Notes under the pieces: model-generated | The model's database searches: none | What the model was told of the DNA's origin: nothing | The model's input: only the letters and a program-made list of their open reading frames with translations | NCBI GenBank assembly: GCA_905178155.1 | Contig: CAJINV010000011.1 | Span: 72,154-136,153 of the forward strand | Direction of reading: 5' to 3' | Origin: Amoebophrya sp. A120 | Taxonomy: Eukaryota > Protista > Dinoflagellata | Length of the DNA stretch: 64,000 nucleotides | Program-made: the position numbers and the translations under genes | Shown here: piece by piece, positions 7,535 to 21,100 of the stretch | Layout of the letters: every line of letters starts with the position of its first letter | Position numbering within the stretch: position 1 is the stretch's first letter

Positions 7535-7667
7535 CAGTTCGAAATTCTTTCTCGGTGTGAAATTTTTGTGTGCTTATCAGTTCGAAATTTTTTCTCGGTG
7601 TGAATGTTTCGTGTGCTTATCGGTTCGAAATTCTTTCTCGGTGTGACATTTTCGTATGCTTATCAGT
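7535..7667. repeat. Intergenic tandem repeat, 43 bp x 3
   Basis: Unit CAGTTCGAAATTCTTTCTCGGTGTGAAATTTTTGTGTGCTTAT at 7535, 7578 and 7621, with a few substitutions and no spacers. Confidence 0.9.
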
Positions 7668-8062: not shown

Positions 8063-11000
8063 TCATTTTTGCCACGACCAAGCTGGTAGGTTTAAAATCG
8101 CCTCGTGCATGTTGCGCAATCCATCCAGCAGGTAGTCGCGTTGCATCTTTTCGCCTCGGTGCATCTCGAAGTGTTTCTGTGCCTCCTCGATGGTCTTGAA
8201 GTGCCCGTACCGGAGGAGATACGCGATCACAAAAAAACCAGTGCGGTTCACGCCATGTGTGCAGTGGATCGCGATCTTCTTGTCGGGATACCGTGTCACA
8301 TAGTCACGCAGATGAATTGCAAAAGTATCGCACTCGTAGTAATTGCAGTCACGCATAATTTTTACAAATCTTTTCCTTAAGGTAAATCCGCATACACAAA
8401 CTTTATTTTTCAAAATGAGCAAATTTGCAATGCATTTGTATGAGTGCGATACTTTTGCAATCCATAATGCATCCACCAGGTGACGTCGTCTACGTCTCCG
8501 AGCGTTGGCACTGGCTATGCTGAGGAAAAATCTCCCCCACACATCAAAAAGGCAATTTTTGATGCTGATAGTCTTGCGCACAAGGCAAACGGCACCCATG
8601 TGGCGCATTGCGCAGCCAGTCTGTCGCGTGCTTTCGCCTATATCAGACCTGTTTCACATGCGCAGCTGCTAGCCGGATGCGTACCAAAATGAGCTTCGAA
8701 TATGCCGGCAAGATCTTGATCTTGCTGCAAATACAATACAAATTTCATTTGTGCACACAAATCCAGCAACACAAATCGTCTTTTGAGAATGGGGTGGGGG
8801 CTTTTTTCACTTTGATACTTTCCGTCCTGCCACCTTCTTCTGCCACACATATATGGAGTCGAAGCCTTCCAGATCTTTTATTTCTTCCTCCCAAGAGCAG
8901 TACCTGCAGTAGAGTTTGTCCAAGTCGGATGAGTGGATACTTATCGCAACGGCGAAAGTCATAGCCTTGTTTTTCATCGTAGCTGACAACCTGCTCGAAA
9001 AAACGAGAAACGCAAATAAAGGAATAAAGGAGCACGAATAATAATACTTGTCTGTGTTCGTCAGGTTCACGATAAGCGAGACCTCGTTCGGCCGCTCCCT
9101 CAGGAAATCTGCGCAACCGAACCGCTCCGCTTCGGGAATAGCCCAGTCCCACTTCCAAGAGCAGGGAGTTTTGAGCGGTATGATTTTATCTATCACGGGG
9201 TCGCCAAACTTCGTGCACTCGAGCCACTTCTGCACCCATTCTGGTTTATTCCGCGTGCCGTAATTGGTATTGCCCTGATATCCATGTTGATTTTGATTTC
9301 CGCCCCCAGCCCACGACGTTCTCACCTCGTATGCATATGCAAATGTGCTGTCTGGGTCTGAAGGATTGCAACTCGTAGAGCTGGTGCGTTTGCAGCATTT
9401 AGACGCAATAAATCTGTCGTTCACAGTCAGAACAAAGCCTACGGTTTTCGTTTCCCGCAAAGTTAACCATTTCCCATGCAGGGTGTACATGGAGAGGCCT
9501 CTACTGCGGGTCTTGTCATGCTCTGCGTCCAAAAATTAAAATTCACACGGGCTTGCCCAGGTCCACAGAACACATGACAAGTGTCTGCAGTCTCCCAGAC
9601 CCAGACGAATCTACATTTGGTACCTCGTTTCCCCGTGCGGAAGATGCAGATGATTTCAACCGGTTTCCTTGCTGCGTGGACGTTCCTATCCTAAGTAAAA
9701 ACGTCCCCACCCTAGAGTTGTCATGCAGATTAGCAAGCACAGGAGCATTTGTGAATTGTGACGCGCATTCCCAAGAGAGGCAATTCCAGTCGTGCTCTGG
9801 AACTTGTAATGCTGTAAACAGGATGAGCAGATGGATTTGTTATGCGGATTCCCTTGCTAAACTGAATTACACTACAGCCTGCAACTTGTCATGCGCGAAC
9901 CACAAATCTTCCAGCTTTGTGTTGCAAAATCTCCATCTTGACTCTGCGGCGGGGACGTCTTTCCTGAGAATAGTTCCATGCTCCGCATTGTCGTGATAGT
10001 CGTTGCGAGCTTGCTGCTCCGTCGTTCCAGCAGCTGGTTGTTGATGTGTTACAATAGAATTGACGTGTGCCCAGCAACATAAAAAGCGGCGCAAATTATT
10101 CATCTGTTGTCAATAGTGTCTAGAGTATCACACTGAGGACGCATAATGTCCGCGGAACATTTCTGCAGAAAAAAGCTGCATAGTAGGCACCTTTTCCGTT
10201 CTTATTATCGACGTCTGCAGCCGCTGTAGGTGCCGGACGAGCGCGATTCAGCGCCTCGCTACCAGTCGCGCGCCCCCGGTCGGTGCCTTGCCTCCGGCTG
10301 CGGCTTCGATGAGAATCGCCGTGGAGGATTCTGTTCGCAGGCACTGGCGGAAAATTCCGGGTCCGGGGAACCTCTGGCGCAGAACGTGGAGCACCCGGCG
10401 CAGCTTTTGCCCCCGGGGCGGCTGCATTTGCCGATCCAGGTCGTTCTTGCTCAACTGCTCCATGGTTCTTGCCCGCGGTCGAAGATGACGCAGAACAAGA
10501 ATGCAGCACTCCCGGCGTCGTGCCCGCCGACGGGCCCGGTGGCTTTGATGCGCAGCTAGCAGGTTGATCAGGAGCTGCACTTCCCGCGCTGCCCGACGAA
10601 CCCGCGTGCGCCCCTTTTGTACATGGAATTGCATGACAGATAAAAAAGGTCAGGTTGCTTACGTTTTTCTTGTGTCTCTGCCACATTTTCTGGGCGGTGT
10701 GCATTCATAAGGATACCATTGTTATGCATCGTGTGTGCTGGAACTGAAAAATGAAAAGAATTCACCGTAAACGAAGTGAAAGTTGTAGTACCATTTTTTT
10801 CTCTCATACCCTCCTTCCCGGCCGTGGTTTTTGGCACAGCACTTGGCAGTTGACCTTTCCGCCCGTGGTTTTTGGCACAGCCCTTGGCAGTTGCAGCTTG
10901 TTCTTGTCCGCCCGCACGCAGTAATTCGCCACCGACCACTGCAGAAGAGCTGGTAGAAGTTGTACCTTGCACCGGCATATCAAATGCAAAAATGTCTGGG

Positions 11001-14000
11001 TCTGGAAACTTGTGATGCTAAAAGTGAATGGTAGACGGACTGCAATACGCAGCTGTGCATGACAAATTTTTTGGCTCCCATGTCTTACGTATTCCGCGTG
11101 ACAAACTGCGTTTTTGCATGACAGGTAAGAAAGCCTTTTCGTGCCTATGCATGACAGATTCGCGAGTTATGCCAGACAAGCATGACAGACTTGCATTCTT
11201 CCAGACCCAGACACTTTTACAATTGATACGGCAAGGGTCCACGGCCTGGCGGCTTGGCGACCGCAGCAGAAGTGCTCCTCCTGCCGGTTGTAACGGTTTC
11301 ATCCCACGACTCGCCTTCGTCTGCCTTTTGATACTTCTTGGGCTGGTATCAAAGGTGCACAAGAGCTACTCTCCGTTCCCCTCATCATGTGATGTCATGC
11401 AAAATATCAAATCCACTTCTTGCGCTACTTAGGGACTGGTAGCATGACAAGTTCTCTGTTCCTCGAGTACTAGGAATTCCTCGAGTACTAGAGAAAAAAA
11501 CAGTACTAGAATTGTTATCCTTCTTGTTCGGATTTTACATGCGGGAGATGACCCACTTCTGTGCCACTAAAACTTGTCGTGGGGCTTCTAAATAAATATG
11601 CGTTTGTTCAAATGAAGTTGATGGGGGGCGTTGAGCACAACTACAACTCTGACTCTCGTAGCTGGTCGCCGTGCCGTTTGCTCGCGCTCCTCGGGCGTTT
11701 GTTGGTGTGTTCCTTTACCTTGCTGGAGTACCGCGACGGGCCTGGGCCGCCCAGAATGTCGCGCGAGGAGCGGTCGTTCTTGGCGCGAGGAGAACTTGTT
11801 TCACCTCGTTCATCTCCCCACGGAGACACCGGTCTTTTCGGATTCTTGGCGAGGCCGTCATTGTGGTTTTTAGCAACTTCATTGCCTCCGCCCACAGAAG
11901 TAGTGTTGCAGTTCGTCTCGAAAGAAGTTGTGTCCTTCTGTTTGCTCTGGCCTCCACCTCTCGGTTTATTATTGTCCTTCACCTTGCTTTGCCCACCTCT
12001 CGGTTCCCGGGGCAGGCTACGTTGCTTCACCTTACTTTGCTTGCCACCATCTTCGCGAACGTTATTCGAAGTGCTGTCGACGCGCTCCTTGCTACTTCGG
12101 CCGCCACGGAGATGTACGGGTGTGGTCTTCTTATCTTTCACTTTGCTCTCGCCCCGTCCATTTGGTCGGTTTATCACGGCAGGTATGGAGTGCAAACGCA
12201 TCGCTCTAGCAGTAAGTAATTATTGCTCAGCATGAGTAGAAATGGAATTTGTAATGCGGATTTCCCTTGAAAAAAAAATAGCAATGCATGACTGCAATAA
12301 CAACTGAGAGCGCGATACTTTTGCACAGGATAGAAGGAGGTCGGTTTATCTTGGCGACCGCAGCAGAAGTGCTCCTCCCGCCGGTTGTACAGCTACGCTG
12401 CTGCTGCAGTTGCATATGCATTGCAAATATGTCTCGGTCTGGAAGAGTGCAACTTGTCATGCTGCATCTGGATCAGGGAAAAATTTGTCTTGCATATATT
12501 ACCAAAAGATGCCCACTGTTGAACAAGTTTAGAGGCAGTTTCTCATGCAGCAAAGGCATGATAGAGATCTCACATAACCTGTCATGCTAGGCCGCGCATG
12601 CCAAACCGTGCGCGTCATGGAAAACCTGCATGACAAGCCTAGCAATCTTCCAGACCCAGACATATTTGCAATGCATAGTGCACCAGCAAAGGTCCACGGC
12701 CTGGCGACTTGGCGACCGCAGCAGAAGTGCTCCTCTCGCCGGTTTTACAGCTAGGCTACTTATCAAATGTAAAAATGTCTGGGTGTGGAAGATTGCCAGG
12801 TTTGTCATGCATATTTCTCATGATCCATGATGCCTGTAATGCATGACCTAGCATTACAGACTTTTAGAGGGCTTCCTGATGCACCTTTCGCATGAGAAGT
12901 GCGCTGTCCGGCAAGCACAAACCGGACCCCTCGTTCTGGTCATACAATACAATTTTTTTTAGTGTCCAAATTCAGCATGACAAGTTGCGCTCTTCCAGAC
13001 CCAGACATTTTTAGATTTTGCATTTGATACTGCTCCTGCAGTTGCTTGCCCCGGGGGGCCCTGCTTGCGCCCCGCTCCGGTTCTGTTGAATGAAATGATT
13101 TCTTATTATCTTTATTGTTTTCCGCGACTCTATCCATCTTTGTCTCCGCGTCTGCAGCAGGACTTGTTCCCATTTCCTTGCATACAACACATGAGTGACA
13201 TGCTCTACATCTTTATATCCTTATAAGAAACGGCGATAAAAATCTTCAGGAGGGCGATCTAGATAATCTTCATTAGCAGAATAGGACCTTCGTATACCTT
13301 TCTTTTCCCCCGTCGCTGCAGTACCATCAGCAGTCGTTCCCAGAGCAGCAGCAGGACCATCGCGCGCTGCCGTAATCTTGGCCACAATGTCGGCACTTGG
13401 GAAATCAGACATTTGTTTCAGCAGGCCTGGCCCTCGTTGGTCCGAGCTACAACTCACAGATTGCGTCCGACGAGTTGGGGCACCTTCTGCCAGGGTCTAT
13501 CCTGTATCGAAACGTCCCCACACCAGAGTCAAGATGGGAAATCTGCTAGACAAATCAGCCAGCATTGGCTGCTTCGCGTGACAAGTTCTTTGTCCTCGCA
13601 GTGTAATCCTGTAGTTTAGCTACTTCATCAGCATCACAGATCTAGCATATCAAGCTGATCTTAGCATCAAAAATTCCAAAACACAACCAAAAAATGCTTT
13701 TCATGGGGCTCCGCATCAGAAACTTTTTTGGCATGCAAATTGGCATGACAACTATCGGGTGGGTACGTTTTTGCTCAGGGTAGGACGCCCTCGTTGCTCG
13801 TCGTTATTTTTTGTCGTAGTTGATGTGCTCCAGCTCTTTCGCCGAATGAAGAGGATGGGCCAGAAGCGGCACTCGTACGACCTCTGCGAGGCGCGATGGC
13901 GCTTCCAAGGTTCACTTGCTTCTTGTTCGCAGATGAAGATGTAGAAAGTGCAGCGGAAGATGCACACACGGACGAACTACTCCCCGATGGGATAGGAGCC

Positions 14001-14890
14001 ACTGCTCCTGTAGAAAGTGGCGGATCCAGTGCTGCTGCTTCTTGCGCTGGTTCTTTCAGCGGTGCCTTGGTTTGTTGATGACTCGCCGACTGTTTCATAT
14101 TTCCTGATACTGCTCTATGCTGCTGGTCTTGCTTTTGGTCTTCCCCAGCGTCATCTGTGATCTTAATTGCTCTACTTACCGACGCGGTACGGTTGATCTT
14201 GGTAGCATTGGCCGGCATGGGAGGCAGGTCCTGTTTGCAGACGCACCCTGATGTGGTTCCTCGGGCCCGCGACTTACTCAGACCGGGCGCGGGGCAGCGC
14301 CTCACACTACGAATACGATACGTCTCCTCCTGCTTCTTGCCGTTAAAGGTTCTTTGGTCGGGGACTGGCGGCGCAAAATGACCGCCCAAAGATGAAGATA
14401 TAGCCGCGTCGTGACTCTTGTTGTCTTTACTGCCACGACCTCCTGTTGCGCTCCTACCTCTACTTCTGCTCCGGAGCCGAGGTGGAGACACAGCAAGGCT
14501 GGGCTGCCCGACATGCTGCACCACCGCAGAACGAGCAGAAGGGTCCACCAAATTCGATTCTTCCTTGTTGTTTTGCTTGCTAGTGGTGGAGGCCGCTGCT
14601 GGTGCACGACTGCAACTCGTGGCGTTGCGAAAAACGCTGGGCCTTTGCTTTTTTGATCGTGGAGGCATTGGCGACTCCTCCTTTTTTTTTTCCTTCTTCA
14701 TGGTCCTCTTCTTCCTTCTAATTGGAGCTTCGTTTTCATCCGGGCCGAGGACAGCTGTCTCCCACTCGTCAGAGGACGACTTCTCGCTTATTACAATGAA
14801 AAATGTCACCATCCCAGAAATTGGCACCGTTTGTATTGCAAACCCTATTTTTTCCATTGATTGGGAGCATTCCCCGTCTACTTCTTGCAT
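8063..14890 (-). CDS. RNA 5'-triphosphatase of the cysteine-phosphatase family (DUSP11/PIR1 or capping-enzyme type) with long low-complexity N-terminal region
   Basis: Spliced C-terminal domain reads KIIPLKTP...LIVNLTNTDKY...VAGRKVPTLGDVDDVTWWMRDYVTRYPDKKIAIHCTHGVNRTGFFVIAYL...AQKHFEMHRG, with the HCTHGxNRTG P-loop. Upstream exons join in frame across introners; a few ordinary introns are unresolved and the 5' end is uncertain. Confidence 0.8.
8311..8466. mobile_element. Introner, family B
   Basis: TTGCAAAAGTATCGCACTC...GAGTGCGATACTTTTGCAATCCATA; direct repeat ACGCA/ATGCA; restores phosphatase frame. Confidence 0.85.
8516..8817. mobile_element. Introner, family C (degenerate)
   Basis: TATGCTGAGGAAAAATCTCCCCCAC...GTGGGGGCTTTTTTCACTTTGATA; direct repeat CTGGC/CTTTC; frame restored. 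Confidence 0.75.
9330..9622. mobile_element. Introner, family A (readable as GT-AG)
   Basis: TGTCTGGGTCTG core at both ends; direct repeat CCTCG/CCTCG. Confidence 0.9.
9687..9972. mobile_element. Introner, family C
   Basis: TATCCTAAGTAAAAACGTCCCC...GGGGACGTCTTTCCTGAGAATA; direct repeat GTTCC/GTTCC. Confidence 0.9.
10978..11228. mobile_element. Introner, family A
   Basis: TATCAAATGCAAAAATGTCTGGGTCTGGAA...TTCCAGACCCAGACACTTTTACAATTGATA; direct repeat CGGCA/CGGCA. Confidence 0.92.
11347..11660. mobile_element. Degenerate introner
   Basis: TA...TA ends; direct repeat GCTGG/GCTGG; frame restored (GDQ|PKKY); inverted repeats eroded. Confidence 0.65.
11700..12160 (-). repeat. Coding peptide repeat (GGxSKVK-like, about 5 copies)
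   Basis: GESKVKD, KQSKVKQ, GQSKVKD, GQSKQKD and YSSKVKE in ORF 11641-12201. Confidence 0.65.
12184..12332. mobile_element. Introner, family B
   Basis: TATGGAGTGCAAACGCATCGC...GCGATACTTTTGCACAGGATA; direct repeat GCAGG/GAAGG. Confidence 0.85.
12415..12677. mobile_element. Introner, family A
   Basis: Near-perfect TATGCATTGCAAATATGTCT inverted repeat; direct repeat TTGCA/GTGCA. Confidence 0.92.
12761..13029. mobile_element. Introner, family A
   Basis: TATCAAATG...CATTTGATA; direct repeat CTACT/CTGCT. Confidence 0.9.
13498..13782. mobile_element. Introner, family C (readable as GT-AG)
   Basis: TATCCTGTATCGAAACGTCCCCAC...GTGGGTACGTTTTTGCTCAGGGTA; direct repeats diverged; frame restored. Confidence 0.8.
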
Positions 14891-15136
14891 ATCTACTCAG
14901 CATCACACATGATAATTTTCATGCTGAATATTAGCTCAAGTTTGTGTTGCAATGGAGCCCAGCAGCAGCCGGATCTGTATATACAAAAAGGATACCTTCT
15001 TGCGCACCTACATTTTTCTACATCAGAAAGACGCGTAGCTCTTTCATGCAAAACAAAAAGTTTTCATCCGGATGAAACCTTGCATCAGGAGAAACTTTTG
15101 AGAATTTTGGGGGTGGGGGCACTTTTCATTCTAATA
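14890..15136. mobile_element. Degenerate family C-like element
   Basis: Right end GGGGTGGGGGCACTTTTCATTCTAATA resembles that of 8516-8817; direct repeat TTGCA/TTGCT; frame joining unresolved. Confidence 0.55.
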
Positions 15137-18100
15137 TTGCTGGAACACGAAGATGCCACCGAAGCTCGACGAGGCGCCAGCGAATACCTAATGCTCCCAC
15201 CTGGAGAACGGCTGCAAGCGGTTTCGTAGCCTCTTGCGCGCTTCAAGTGACTCGGAACCCACGGACGCTGCGATCCCGGGTTGGTGCGGCGTTCTGGTGC
15301 TGTTTCATTTTGTACTTCTAGGCACCTCTCGTCAGGAACTGGTGGTGATTGCCTTATGCGGAGCGCCAGCCCTCCTGCTACTTCCGCTGCATTTTTCTTC
15401 GGCCCGGGTTCTACAGTGGCGGGAAATAGATGACCGGTTTGCGTGTTCGTGCGAAGTACATCTGTTTGATCTTGTTCTTCCACGACTGGCGAAGGTCCAC
15501 GGCCTTGTTGTGGGTCCGCGACCGCAACGGAGATTCCCCCAACTAAACTCCCGCTTGAACTCGCGCTCGGAGGTTGTTCTTGCCCGCCAGCAACTTGAAA
15601 TACTTCTCCACCGTCCATTTTTGCAGAAGAGCTGCCAGTACAACTCCCTATGCCTCCTCCTTCCGGGCTTGTCTTCCCGGCTGTTGCGACGTTCTGTGAA
15701 GAAGACGCCTTTGTAGGAACGCCAGTTGCAGCTGACGCTGTCCCCCCATCTTCGCGGCTGTTCTTGTCGGTAGTTCCAAGAACGCCTTCTGTTTGTGCCT
15801 GTTCTTCCGGAGGTCGTTGTACAACAGCAGGGGCTCCTGCTCGCTGGGCGCCAGCAGACGCAGCGGCACTATTACCCCCTCCACGACGATGCTGCGCACT
15901 GGCGGTTCGAAGGTTTACTGCCGTCATCTTATCCTGCGCAGAGGAAGACGATGAAGATGCAGATGCAGCCGATGAGGACGATTGCGGTGGCGCAGCTGCC
16001 GCGATAGAAAGTGGCCTGCCTTCAACTGCAGGCTTTTGTTCACCGCGTCGATGCCCAGGAACATCTGCGTCGGCAGAGTCGTCTGGTGGGTCGCGTTGTG
16101 GCTCCGACGACGGGCAGCTGTTTCCTAGAGCCGCTTTCCCTGCTCCCGTCGTGCTGGTTGTACCCGTTGTCTCTGTGATTCTTGCTCGCGCTCCGTGGTT
16201 CTTGCCCACGGGTGATGCTACTGCTGATGTTGAAGATGTTGCGGAAGAAGGTGCCAGCACACCCGTACCCGCTGACGAACCCAGTGGCGCAGTAGCTTTC
16301 GCTGCGTTCTTATCCGCCAGCTTTTTCGACGAAGCGACTCTGTGGCCATCACCGACATTATGTCTGCTCTTTTTGTTTTCATCGTTTCTCGGCGGTCCTT
16401 TCGCAGCACTACCTCCAGCGGCCACAGGCTGAATCCTACTAGAAGTTGTTCCCACTGGTGCGGCCACCTCACCGAGGTTCGGACGAGCAGCAGTGGTCGG
16501 TGCAGTAGAGGTTGCAGTAGCAGGTGGACCTTGAGGGCCAGGGCCGGGACCCCCCTTCGCTAGCGGAGCGGGAGCTCCACCTGGGGTCGGACGAAAAAAC
16601 TGCTCCACTTTTTCCAAATGTTTCTTTTCCAGCAGTTTGCTGTACTCTTCGAGCCCGACGCGGCACGAGGCGCTTTTCGCCTGGTTGCCAATCTTCATGA
16701 AGAGCAGCTTCGCCGCCTTGTGGTTGCCGTCGTCATACAACCGGTCGCCAATCATCTGGCAGTCCACTTCTGTGTTCGTTCCGGACCTCCACACGGAGTC
16801 CATTAAATCGTCCAGCTTGTCAATTTTCGCGTAGCTGTATGCTAGTTCCGACTCCAAATGTTGGTCTTTCCACGACTTGCGCGCCATTTCCAAAAACGGG
16901 ACCAGCTCCCCAAACTTGTTCTCCTTCTTGGCCACGGAGATCACCTCCGTGTAGTTTGAACCGTCGTTCGCCTTAAGGTAACTGGCGATGGCATCCGCGA
17001 CGGAACCTGATTGTTCGAGATACGCCTTTCCCAATTTGGTCCAGACAACCGGCTCGTTCACCCTTGCAGCATACGTGGCCGCGCGATCCATTCTCTTGGC
17101 CGTGTTCTTGATGCAGTCAAGCAAAACGGACATGGCCTCCGGGTGCATCTCCAGTTTGACGTAGCACGACGCCAGCTTCGCGTTGTTGCCAATCGACTGG
17201 AAGAGCAGCTTGGCCGCCTTGTAGTTGCCCTCGTCGTACAACCGGTCGCCGATCATCTGGCAGTTGGCGGTGCTTATCAAATGCAAAAATGTGGTCTGGG
17301 TCTAGAATGCAAACTTGGCAAGCGTACTTTGCATGCCCCACGAGGTCTGCTATGCAGGACCTAGCATGACAGGTTCTGCGAAGTCTCTATCATGTCTATC
17401 CTGCATGACAAACTGCCGCTAAAGTTGTTCAAACGTGGACGCCTTTCGGTAATCATGCAACACAAATTTCTGCACTATCCAGACTCAGCATGACAAGTTG
17501 CATCCTTCCAGACCCAGACATTTTTGCAATGCATAGTGTTGGTGCCAGACACGAACTCCTCCAAGTCCGCCAAATTGTCGATTTTCGCGTAGCTGTACAC
17601 CAGTTCCTATGCACTGCAACAGTAGCGCGCTCGTAGTAAAACTAAAAATTAAAATTATCGCAGTCATGGTCCATTACAAATTTAGTTATCAAGGTCAGTC
17701 CGCATCACAAATTAATGCACTTGTAATGCTGAGCCAATTTGTAATGCAATTCCTACTAGTACGGTACTTTTGCAATGCATAGTTCCGAGTCCAGGTGCTG
17801 GTCCTTCTGCGACTTCCGCGCCATTTTCAGAAACGTCACCAGTTCCTCGAATTTGTTCTGCCTCTCCGCCACGGAAATCACCTCCATGTAGTCCGAAGCG
17901 TCGTTCGCCTTAATGTAACTGTCGATAGCCTCGGCCACGATACCTGATAATTTCATTTTGCGTATATATCATGCAGGACAAACCTCCTTCGCGCAGTAGA
18001 TCAATCAGCATGACAAATTATTTTTGTCATTCTGAGCTCAATTTGAAAATTATGCACGTCACAATACCTGATTCCAAGTACGCCTTTCCCAATTTGCTCC

Positions 18101-21100
18101 ACACGACCGGCTCGTTCACCCGTGCGGCGTATTCCGCGGCCCGTTATCAAATGCAAATATGGTTGGGTCTGGAAGAGGGCATTTGTCATGCGGAATAGGC
18201 ACCAAGAAGCTCTCAAAAAATCTGTGATGCTAGGGCATGCATCACAGACATCAGGGCTCATGCAAAACGTGCATGACAAGTGTCACAATCTTCCAGCGCC
18301 AGACATTTTTACAGTTGATACCCGTTCTATGCTGTCAATGTTCAAAAGCAAAACGGACATGGCCTCCGGGTGCATCTTATCAAATTGAAAAATGTCTGGG
18401 TCTGGAAACTTGTGATGCTGGGTGGCGTCTCATGATGAGGCCACAAATGCTGGCTCAGCATGACAAGTTTCTAAGCTTCTAGGTGTTGCCTATTCTGCAT
18501 GACAAACTGCGTTCCTGCAGCACAGAAAAGTGGAGCTCTTGCGTAACGTGCATGACAGATTTAAGAGTCATGCCAGACAAGCATGACAAACCTGGCATTT
18601 TTCCAGACCCAGACACTTTTACATTTGATACATCTCGGCTTTCTCGAAGATCACCGACGCCACCTCGTGATACTCGTACTGCAGGGCGATCTGCGCGAGC
18701 TCTGGGCCGTTGGAAGTGAGATTTGTGACCAACAACCGGTTGATAAGATACATGACGAACTTTGGGTTCTCTTTGTCAACAACGATGGCCTCTCGAATCT
18801 CGTTTGTGTGCCAGTCCGCTCCGTAACAATCGGGCTGGATGGAAACGATCTCTTCTATCAAGTCACGGCGCTCCGCGATCAGTCCGGCATCTCCAAAAGC
18901 GGTCATATGGATTGTAAAAATGTCTGGGTCTGGAAGAATTCACGTTTGTCATGCTTGTCCGGCAGGACCCTTCCATCTGTCTATGCACGTTACCCAAGAG
19001 CTCCACTCTTCCGTGATGCAGAGCCGCAGTTTGTCATGCAGAATAGGCAACACCTAGGAGCTCGGAAACTTGTCATGCTGAGCCAGTATTCGTAGCCTCA
19101 TCATGAGACGCCACCCAGCATCACAAGTTTCCAGACCCAGACATTTTTACTTTTGATAGGTCAGGGCGGTTGACAAAGTGCATTTCTTCTCCGAGTCCTC
19201 CATAGTCGAGTTCTTTAACAGTGCAGGCACAGCGACGGTTATGCAAGAAAAAAACTACGTGAGTGTAAGTCTGTGATGCAGAAAGTGCAAAACTGTTTAC
19301 ACTTGTCATGCTGGGTCTGCGTCATAGGCTACTTTCACACGTGTTTCCACGTGCTAGCTGCGCATCACAGGAGTTCCCTGCAATGCAAAGCGAGTCTGTG
19401 ATGCTATTCTCGCTACAGAGTTACACTTACACAGTTTTTTTCCTGGATAACGGTAATGGTCGCATCGACGAGTCTCTTTCGGTTTTCTCTGTTCGCCGTG
19501 TTCATCCCGATCAACGTTCCCCATAGCTCCGAAGATTTCCTTCCCAGCAAGTACGTGGCTTGTTCGGAGAACATTTCGTGTTTGGTTGTCACCGCCACTA
19601 CTTCCTCGTCGCACCAGCCAGGCGCGCGACTGTAACAGATGTAAGCGAGGTGTGGTTTGTCTTTCTTTTCGCAGTACTTGCCGATCACTTTGAAGTCGCA
19701 CAGAAAGTGGTCATCCGTCAAGCGGGCCTCGGCCGCGCTAGGTTTCATCATCCTCGTCGAGTCGCAGTCGGCCTCGACGTAGGTCATCGCCAGCAGGTTC
19801 AGCAGTGAGCGGGTCATGTTCTCCATTGTTGCGACGACGTCCGGCGAGAGGACCGGGCCCGTCGTTGATGTTGTCTCTACTGCGTGCTGGGTGCGACGTG
19901 GAGGTGCAACGTCTTCGGAGGACCCTGTATCGTCACTGCATGTTGACCTTTTCCCTTTTTCTGTGACCGGTGCGTCGTCAAGCAGTTGCAGTCTGTTGAC
20001 CCGTTCCTGCATGGAAGATTTGGAAAATAGCTGCTCGAGCCACTGTTGCAGTGGGAGAAGGCGGTTCCGGCTTTTGTACTCCGCCACAAACTATGAAATG
20101 CAAAAAATATGTCTGGGTCTCCTGGAAGATTTCGAGATTTGTCTCATGCAGTTTTTATTCCCAGCTTCCTGAAATCAGGAATGCGCATCCTAGCATCACA
20201 GGTTCTACTGCAGCCCCTTTGTGATGCCTATTCTGCATGAGAAACACCTTCTCAGCAACATGGCCAGAAGTGAGCACCTGTTGCCAGTCATGCAAGACAA
20301 ATCTTTGTACGATCCGCACTTCGCATCACAAGTTCGGTTCCTTCCATTTCCAGACATATTTGCACTGGATACAATCGGCTCGACCGGGCACTGGAGTCGG
20401 ACCGCTAGGAGGACACAGGAGTGGAGAAAGTCTTCCGCCGGACAATAGACCTTACAGTCAAGCAGGCTACCCAAAACGGTTGGACCGTGGAAAGGGTGTG
20501 CTCGCAAATACCTTCTTATCACGGATTGCCACTCTACAACCGGTGGGCGAAAATTATTATTACCTGTAACCAGTTTCTCCAGTTCCTTCACGAAGCCGTG
20601 CTTGCCGCAGACGTAGCACAAACACAAAGGGAAGTCCGCGTGTTCTTTCAGGAACTTATCTCGTTTCGCTACCGGGTCGTACTTGCCGGGATTGTTCATG
20701 AGCCATAGGAACGTCACCCCGTCGCCGTCCTCTTTACTTTTTGCTGCCTTATCGTGGTTCTCGGCCCCACTAGGTTGACCTGAACTACTAGCCGACGCAG
20801 AGGCAGGGTCGGGGCCGCGAACGGTCAGCAACGCCGTGTGCAAAGCGGAGGGGGCACTGCCTACAGGTGCGGGAGATGAAGAAGGCGCATCTCCTCCGGT
20901 CGTGCTGGCTGTACCTGTTGTCTCTGTGATCTCCCTTGGCTCGTCGCCAGGGCCAGACCTCGTCTTGAATGCCCAAATCGCCTCCAGCAGATCGAAGAGT
21001 CTTTTCGTACACAATCGCTGTCCATCCTCGGTTTGGTAAACAACACGCCTCTGAAACCGTCCGCTTTTGTCCATGAAGGGAATCCGTGTCACCGTCCAGG

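Follow-up and report, generated by a model that had tools for sequence, protein, structure and literature searches.

The window, by which we mean the whole 64-kb stretch of Amoebophrya sp. A120 DNA analysed, carries on its minus strand a reconstructed host gene stretch (15137..20091) that encodes clathrin-heavy-chain repeats (PF00637) followed by a low-complexity tail. Once six elements and one GT-AG intron are removed, it reads as a single frame of 1157 codons. The top match of the predicted protein is from Amoebophrya sp. A120 itself (70 per cent; the runner-up reaches at most 50 per cent), and a 160-residue stretch is nearly identical to this A120 relative.

Two elements of this gene, here called A (18378..18630) and B (18906..19158), are each 253 bp long, with no strand assigned. 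Element A starts with TAT, ends with ATA, and has terminal inverted repeats (TIRs) of ~30 nt and a non-coding, polar interior; element B, likewise with a polar interior and TIRs of ~30 nt, belongs to the same subfamily and lies in the opposite orientation. The flanking 5-bp target duplications (given on the plus strand) are CATCT for A (left copy 18373..18377, right copy 18631..18635) and GGTCA for B (left copy 18901..18905, right copy 19159..19163), and thus differ as a preliminary description of this DNA had stated. The elements are spaced by 275 nt, one duplication copy included. After excision, the minus-strand exon between them (18632..18901) would comprise 270 nt (90 codons) of a clathrin heavy chain homologue. 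With a register of 4 + 1 taken from other introns, the predicted minus-strand introns are 258 nt long each: 18374..18631 (GT..AT) for A and 18902..19159 (CT..AC) for B.

Precise removal of each element together with one duplication copy restores the open frame, which would stop at 332 codons if A were retained and at 242 if B were retained. In an alignment of the joined protein with the A120 clathrin P0001, the A and B junctions are both free of gaps. By itself, the middle exon has no homologue among longer proteins and belongs to no Pfam family; its clathrin homology is visible solely in the joined alignment. Canonical splicing was rejected, as neither GT-AG nor GC-AG occurs in any precise register. 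Specifically, B has no frame-keeping GT-AG or GC-AG boundary in the interval scanned, and the sole frame-keeping candidates for A are GC-AG pairs that would cost 6 or 18 exon bases. The earlier view of A and B as introns at adjoining positions is thus probably correct, judging from reading frame and homology.

Several other features of the gene and its surroundings were recorded. A 1.2-kb stretch (17149-18375) is near-identical to the ordinary clathrin heavy chain within an otherwise diverged paralogue; it duplicates one repeat, and one of its breakpoints lies at the target duplication of element A. Speculatively, it could reflect template repair of a break at that element. The first clathrin repeat contains three elements and one GT-AG intron, and the second, with the long low-complexity tail, is a single intron-free exon (15502-17270). 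After element removal, every stop-free stretch of more than 281 codons in the whole window is on the minus strand, like the co-oriented gene blocks described for Amoebophrya. Elsewhere, three tandem 43-nt copies occupy an AT-richer stretch (7537-7667), and exonic repeats of ~62 nt flank several elements (11231-12747), which suggests an internally repeated protein.

Kinship of the two elements

In an end-to-end alignment, A and the reverse complement of B are identical in 224 of 254 columns (88 per cent, with two gaps), and the alignment score of 354 compares with a top score of -117 in 300 shuffles. The interiors alone score 264 when aligned in opposite orientation versus 20 when aligned in the same one, and neither of them matches its own reverse complement; the inversion is therefore genuine and does not stem from the terminal repeats. 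The preliminary description had B as the reverse complement of A over all 253 bp. The inversion stands, but the copies are close relatives at 88 per cent identity and not exact mirror images. Two further inverted pairs named there hold at lower identity than A and B: 2028/12761 (74 per cent in global alignment) and 9687/26228 (72 per cent across 161 nt, one family in opposite orientation).

Both elements have the defining features of miniature inverted-repeat transposable elements (MITEs), being short and non-coding, with TIRs and a target duplication of fixed length. Each is a copy of one and the same MITE-like element, whose ends mirror each other and which is flanked by target duplications of 5 bp. 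The accessible part of the report by Farhat et al. (2021; PMC7789003) names no cognate autonomous transposase element in A120. At least 25-28 elements lie in the 64-kb window, and the same search returned zero elements in three locally shuffled windows. The TIR pattern had no match in viral contigs, and a search of 17900-19600 against Rfam gave no match.

The comparison set consisted of the window and 140 loci (408 kb) of another assembly (prefix JACKZZ01), chosen by the TIR pattern and drawn from an estimated ~350 matching stretches in that assembly. It contained 358 distinct elements, 289 of them with perfect duplications, in 12 families of at least three members. Among the loci of the other assembly were 22 further copies related to A at 81-94 per cent identity.

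These relatives speak against the local hopping that had been proposed from the adjacency of A and B, as the two copies are not sisters. Their identity of 0.882 is just the median value among 276 pairs from the subfamily, and B ranks as the 19th closest of A's 23 relatives, the comparison copies being from the other assembly. Among the matches listed from that assembly, the closest copies reach 94 per cent to A and 92.5 per cent to B. A forced A + B clade is rejected with whole elements (approximately unbiased [AU] test; P-value = 0.021) and is compatible with the interiors alone (P-value = 0.11). Across 134 same-family pairs within 3 kb of each other, the median identity is 0.671 versus a background of 0.670, and A and B are among the three most similar of these pairs. 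Trios of short elements of one family, 82-89 per cent identical and in the same orientation, occur at one locus each in L065:3307-4621 and L015:49-1904; the family may have spread locally or been multiplied by duplication of exons.

Orientation and reading frame across the family

We called the host strand of each element with a codon model and checked the calls on 75 of 123 eligible elements. Pfam matches were found in 11 of the 75 flanks on the called strand and in none of the 75 on the other strand. Seven of the 11 Pfam-supported flanks surround A-like and four B-like elements, and the genes at L041 and L059 contain both.

At a calling threshold of 6, the orientations in the largest family divide 62:84 (146 of 171 members called). 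Other families give 24:12 (36 of 44), 18:8 (26 of 32), and 12:11 (23 of 24), and the A/B subfamily gives 11:8 (19 of 23). The skews found were 28:13 in family 1 at the loosest threshold of 3 (P-value = 0.03) and 15:5 in one subfamily. The counts are compatible with an orientation bias of up to about 2:1, and no large family is one-sided. The sense-to-antisense ratio per family, proposed in the preliminary description as a genome-wide check, thus shows both orientations to be common in this sample of 358 elements, which covers part of the genome.

Of 205 informative cases (303 elements were oriented), 197 show the flanking frames in agreement once the element plus 5 nt is removed, and this holds for both orientations; retention would disrupt the frame in 201. 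GT-AG ends in any precise register are possible for only 14 of 241 elements. The 289 perfect target duplications comprise 244 different 5-mers. When the two element ends are compared in transcript sense, their position-wise base counts match.

Excision boundaries and mode of removal

Contigs of run X4, presumed to be RNA and also lacking GT-AG introns, omit seven elements (9330, 9687, 10978, 11347, 12184, 12415, and 14789) by exactly the element plus 5 nt. One of these is a family relative in A's orientation (10978..11228, no strand assigned; 76 per cent identical to A), which is absent together with one duplication copy and with no mismatches. Another, in B's orientation, is a distant family relative (12415..12677, no strand assigned), likewise missing from an RNA-type contig, and its mismatched duplication helps to set the register. 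Neither an A nor a B junction was seen among the 15 of 26 joints listed, and runs X9-X11 of raw reads gave only partial matches that come from other element copies and leave the locus uncovered. X4 does contain mismatch-free contigs for downstream exons of the host gene (16579-17145 and 13782-16026). From the frame, the homology, and the behaviour of their relatives, removal of A and B from RNA is likely.

Joints at 17269-18321 were rejected as evidence for the locus: the contig behind them is deeper, shows three differences, and runs into ordinary clathrin sequence at both ends, and we treat it as mRNA of the clathrin paralogue. A mismatch-free X4 contig of 713 nt has a listed piece (16579-17145) whose end coincides with the place expected for a left-aligned joint to 18631; the contig has 146 nt besides this piece. 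The sites at 17145 and 18631 have 33 exact bases in common, so that a real form and a short-cut in the assembly are equally likely. The contig end is only a hint that the upstream boundary of A is in use.

Where the two copies of a duplication differ, a contig reveals which base was kept, and thereby k, the number of duplication bases kept upstream. The joints at 12184 and 14789 permit k = 4-5, and the joint at 12415 permits k = 0-4. All 10 joints examined admit k = 4, the sole value shared. It is fixed by the three joints with mismatched duplications, which are junctions in assembled contigs of one run of presumed RNA, two of them marked 'between: not known'. Independently, element 12761-13029 requires k of at least 3, as keeping the downstream duplication copy would create a stop codon. 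When the register was tested by codon scores on 51 mismatched duplications, no signal emerged. The register that fits the three joints, with cuts 1 nt ahead of TAT and 4 nt beyond ATA, suggests a relaxed spliceosome. In the accessible part of Farhat et al. (PMC7789003), the top nine non-canonical motifs of A120 all start with N-T and the nine of A25 all with TT (Table S4), in keeping with this register, though a figure legend calls the position of the intron border unknown. The published N-T motifs may be a product of software placement of ambiguous boundaries.

On balance, we favour removal of A and B by a relaxed spliceosome that would read the TIR motif, with use of the spliceosome itself inferred. 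The two elements would likely have inserted independently into coding DNA and would adjoin by chance within an element-dense gene. Since their ends are mutually reverse-complementary, a transcript would begin each intron with TAT and end it with ATA whichever way the element had landed. The donor would be N-T-A-T, which resembles GT-A except that any first base is allowed; distance, and not AG, would set the acceptor. Exact removal of one duplication copy would leave the protein unaltered. B would be transcribed before A, and would likely be folded or committed by the time A appeared.

Mirror ends present the same 5' and 3' sequences on the sense strand whichever way the element faces, so that orientation would be invisible to a polar spliceosome, too. 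Independence of orientation follows from the terminal inverted repeats and is not evidence of a non-polar machine. The preliminary description had proposed orientation-independent splicing with strand-symmetric signals, unlike those of polar introns. Splicing in either orientation is supported by elements of both orientations in coding exons, by the mirror ends, and by the RNA contigs that lack relatives of both orientations. The signals are indeed mirrored at the two ends, but the step to a non-polar machine was overstated, as a polar spliceosome fits too.

The ends themselves carry a weak indication of polarity. In transcript sense, substitutions number 140 in the 5' TIR versus 191 in the 3' TIR (151 elements; permutation P-value = 0.011, in a post hoc comparison), with 366 versus 368 in an interior control. 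On private changes alone, the asymmetry weakens to 74 versus 104 (P-value = 0.09). Better conservation of the 5' TIR would be a polar signal, if a weak one.

The strongest competing explanation, which we regard as possible though not probable, is a non-spliceosomal excision guided by structure, in which the TIRs would pair and an endonuclease and ligase would cut at constant distances from the stem base. Both predicted introns close a long terminal stem and are modelled as strong hairpins (z = -6.1 for A and -4.7 for B), and the end dinucleotides are unconstrained among elements. The accessible text of PMC7789003 reports U2, U4, U5, and U6 snRNAs in A120 and U1 as undetected. According to the accessible text of PMC11282704, euglenid introns with TIRs and repeats like target site duplications (TSDs) are released as circles without lariats. 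The stems themselves argue against such a guide. As a proxy of limited power for selection on RNA-level pairing, we compared G-U with A-C pairs in terminal stems and found no excess of G-U (321 versus 305; 82 versus 99; 49 versus 57 on private changes). Stem positions 4, 5, and 7 are non-Watson-Crick in 130, 113, and 171 of 303 elements, and the predicted fold of B leaves its outermost bases open. Inverted neighbours of the same family, which would be expected to disturb stems, are not depleted (67 direct and 67 inverted among 134 pairs), and the N-T-A donor looks spliceosomal.

The pairing of A with B raises the further possibility, unlikely in our judgement, that a duplex in the pre-mRNA regularly causes in-frame skipping or circularization of the middle exon. 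The A-B duplex is the predicted minimum-energy fold (-500.6 versus -279.4 kcal/mol for local folding), and the stem of B is predicted to be displaced once ~40 nt of A have been transcribed. The skip would remove 786 nt in frame, and a 270-nt circle would have one stop-free frame. On the other hand, ~290 nt of transcription would allow B to fold alone before A interferes, inverted neighbours are neither over- nor under-represented, and no skip or back-splice joint appears among the 15 of 26 joints listed, which are contigs only, at low depth. We find similarly improbable a combined model, in which a staggered ruler cut, blind to dinucleotides and made 1 nt before one TIR and 4 nt after the other, would undo the 5-bp duplication anywhere and in either orientation, and the A-B duplex would turn the outer TIRs into one composite intron, yielding the in-frame skip of 90 residues and a stop-free circle of 270 nt.

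Finally, it is highly improbable that the gene is a clathrin paralogue in decay, with A and B as insertions that stay unspliced. Such a view would account for the lack of A and B junctions among the joints listed and suits a paralogue that is rearranged and diverged and has duplicated internally, but not a 1157-codon frame that survives seven interruptions, the mismatch-free X4 contigs over downstream exons, or the excision of family members elsewhere in the window.

Relation to known introners

By their sequence features, A and B are introner elements of the system published for Amoebophrya sp. A120 (Farhat et al. 2021; PMC7789003). The accessible text of that report describes inverted repeats that start with TAT, continue with seven variable bases, and then enter a stretch of A, together with direct repeats of 3-5 nt and a mean length of 240 nt for non-canonical introns. 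The elements fit this description, and the system is therefore already known. Shared features are the inverted repeats (TAT, seven variable nucleotides, and at least three A), a 5-bp duplication within the 3-5 nt range, lengths of ~240-250 nt, many families, and non-canonical ends, with CT-AC among the motifs listed; we found no structural differences.

The searched text of PMC7789003 does not discuss the orientation of elements relative to the gene, and we found no statement of orientation ratios for Amoebophrya elements in the accessible literature, figures and preprint supplements aside. In their accessible parts, PMC9860276 describes a method that already allows opposite-orientation matches, and the passages of PMC12130899 and PMC11453091 that mention A120 introners give no orientation data. 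To what is published we add orientation counts, a candidate for a fixed register, derived from mismatches, and a locus well suited to tests.

Introners of Polarella glacialis and Aureococcus anophagefferens, as described in the accessible text of 10.1101/2020.10.14.339549, are also DNA transposons with TIRs that form introns in both orientations, and they draw on the target duplication for the boundary. Their splice sites are GT/GC/GA-AG, their duplications must have certain sequences, and their simple classes favour one orientation, whereas in the Amoebophrya elements the duplication sequence is free and AG is not needed. The nonconventional introns of euglenids resemble them in variable non-canonical ends, a TIR stem, TSD-like repeats, and a presumed MITE origin (accessible part of PMC11282704; see also PMC3935182). 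Their own features, in the same part of PMC11282704, are a pyrimidine|purine junction consensus and circular excision products, and they belong to an unrelated lineage. MITE-derived introns of Fritillaria borealis, as summarized in the accessible part of PMC11282704, likewise have TIRs, TSDs, and non-canonical ends, and are removed by an adapted spliceosome; they keep AG-AC and AG-AT motifs, whereas in Amoebophrya the second donor base alone looks fixed.

The locus sharpens the question of how tens of thousands of non-canonical introns are removed in Amoebophrya, in which no U1 snRNA has been detected. Because a cross-duplex of 230 bp competes with the stem of each intron, the A/B pair is a natural test of hairpin-guided versus motif-guided splicing. 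Near-even orientation, a free target, and a fixed register would together explain why such elements can insert at any coding site at little cost.
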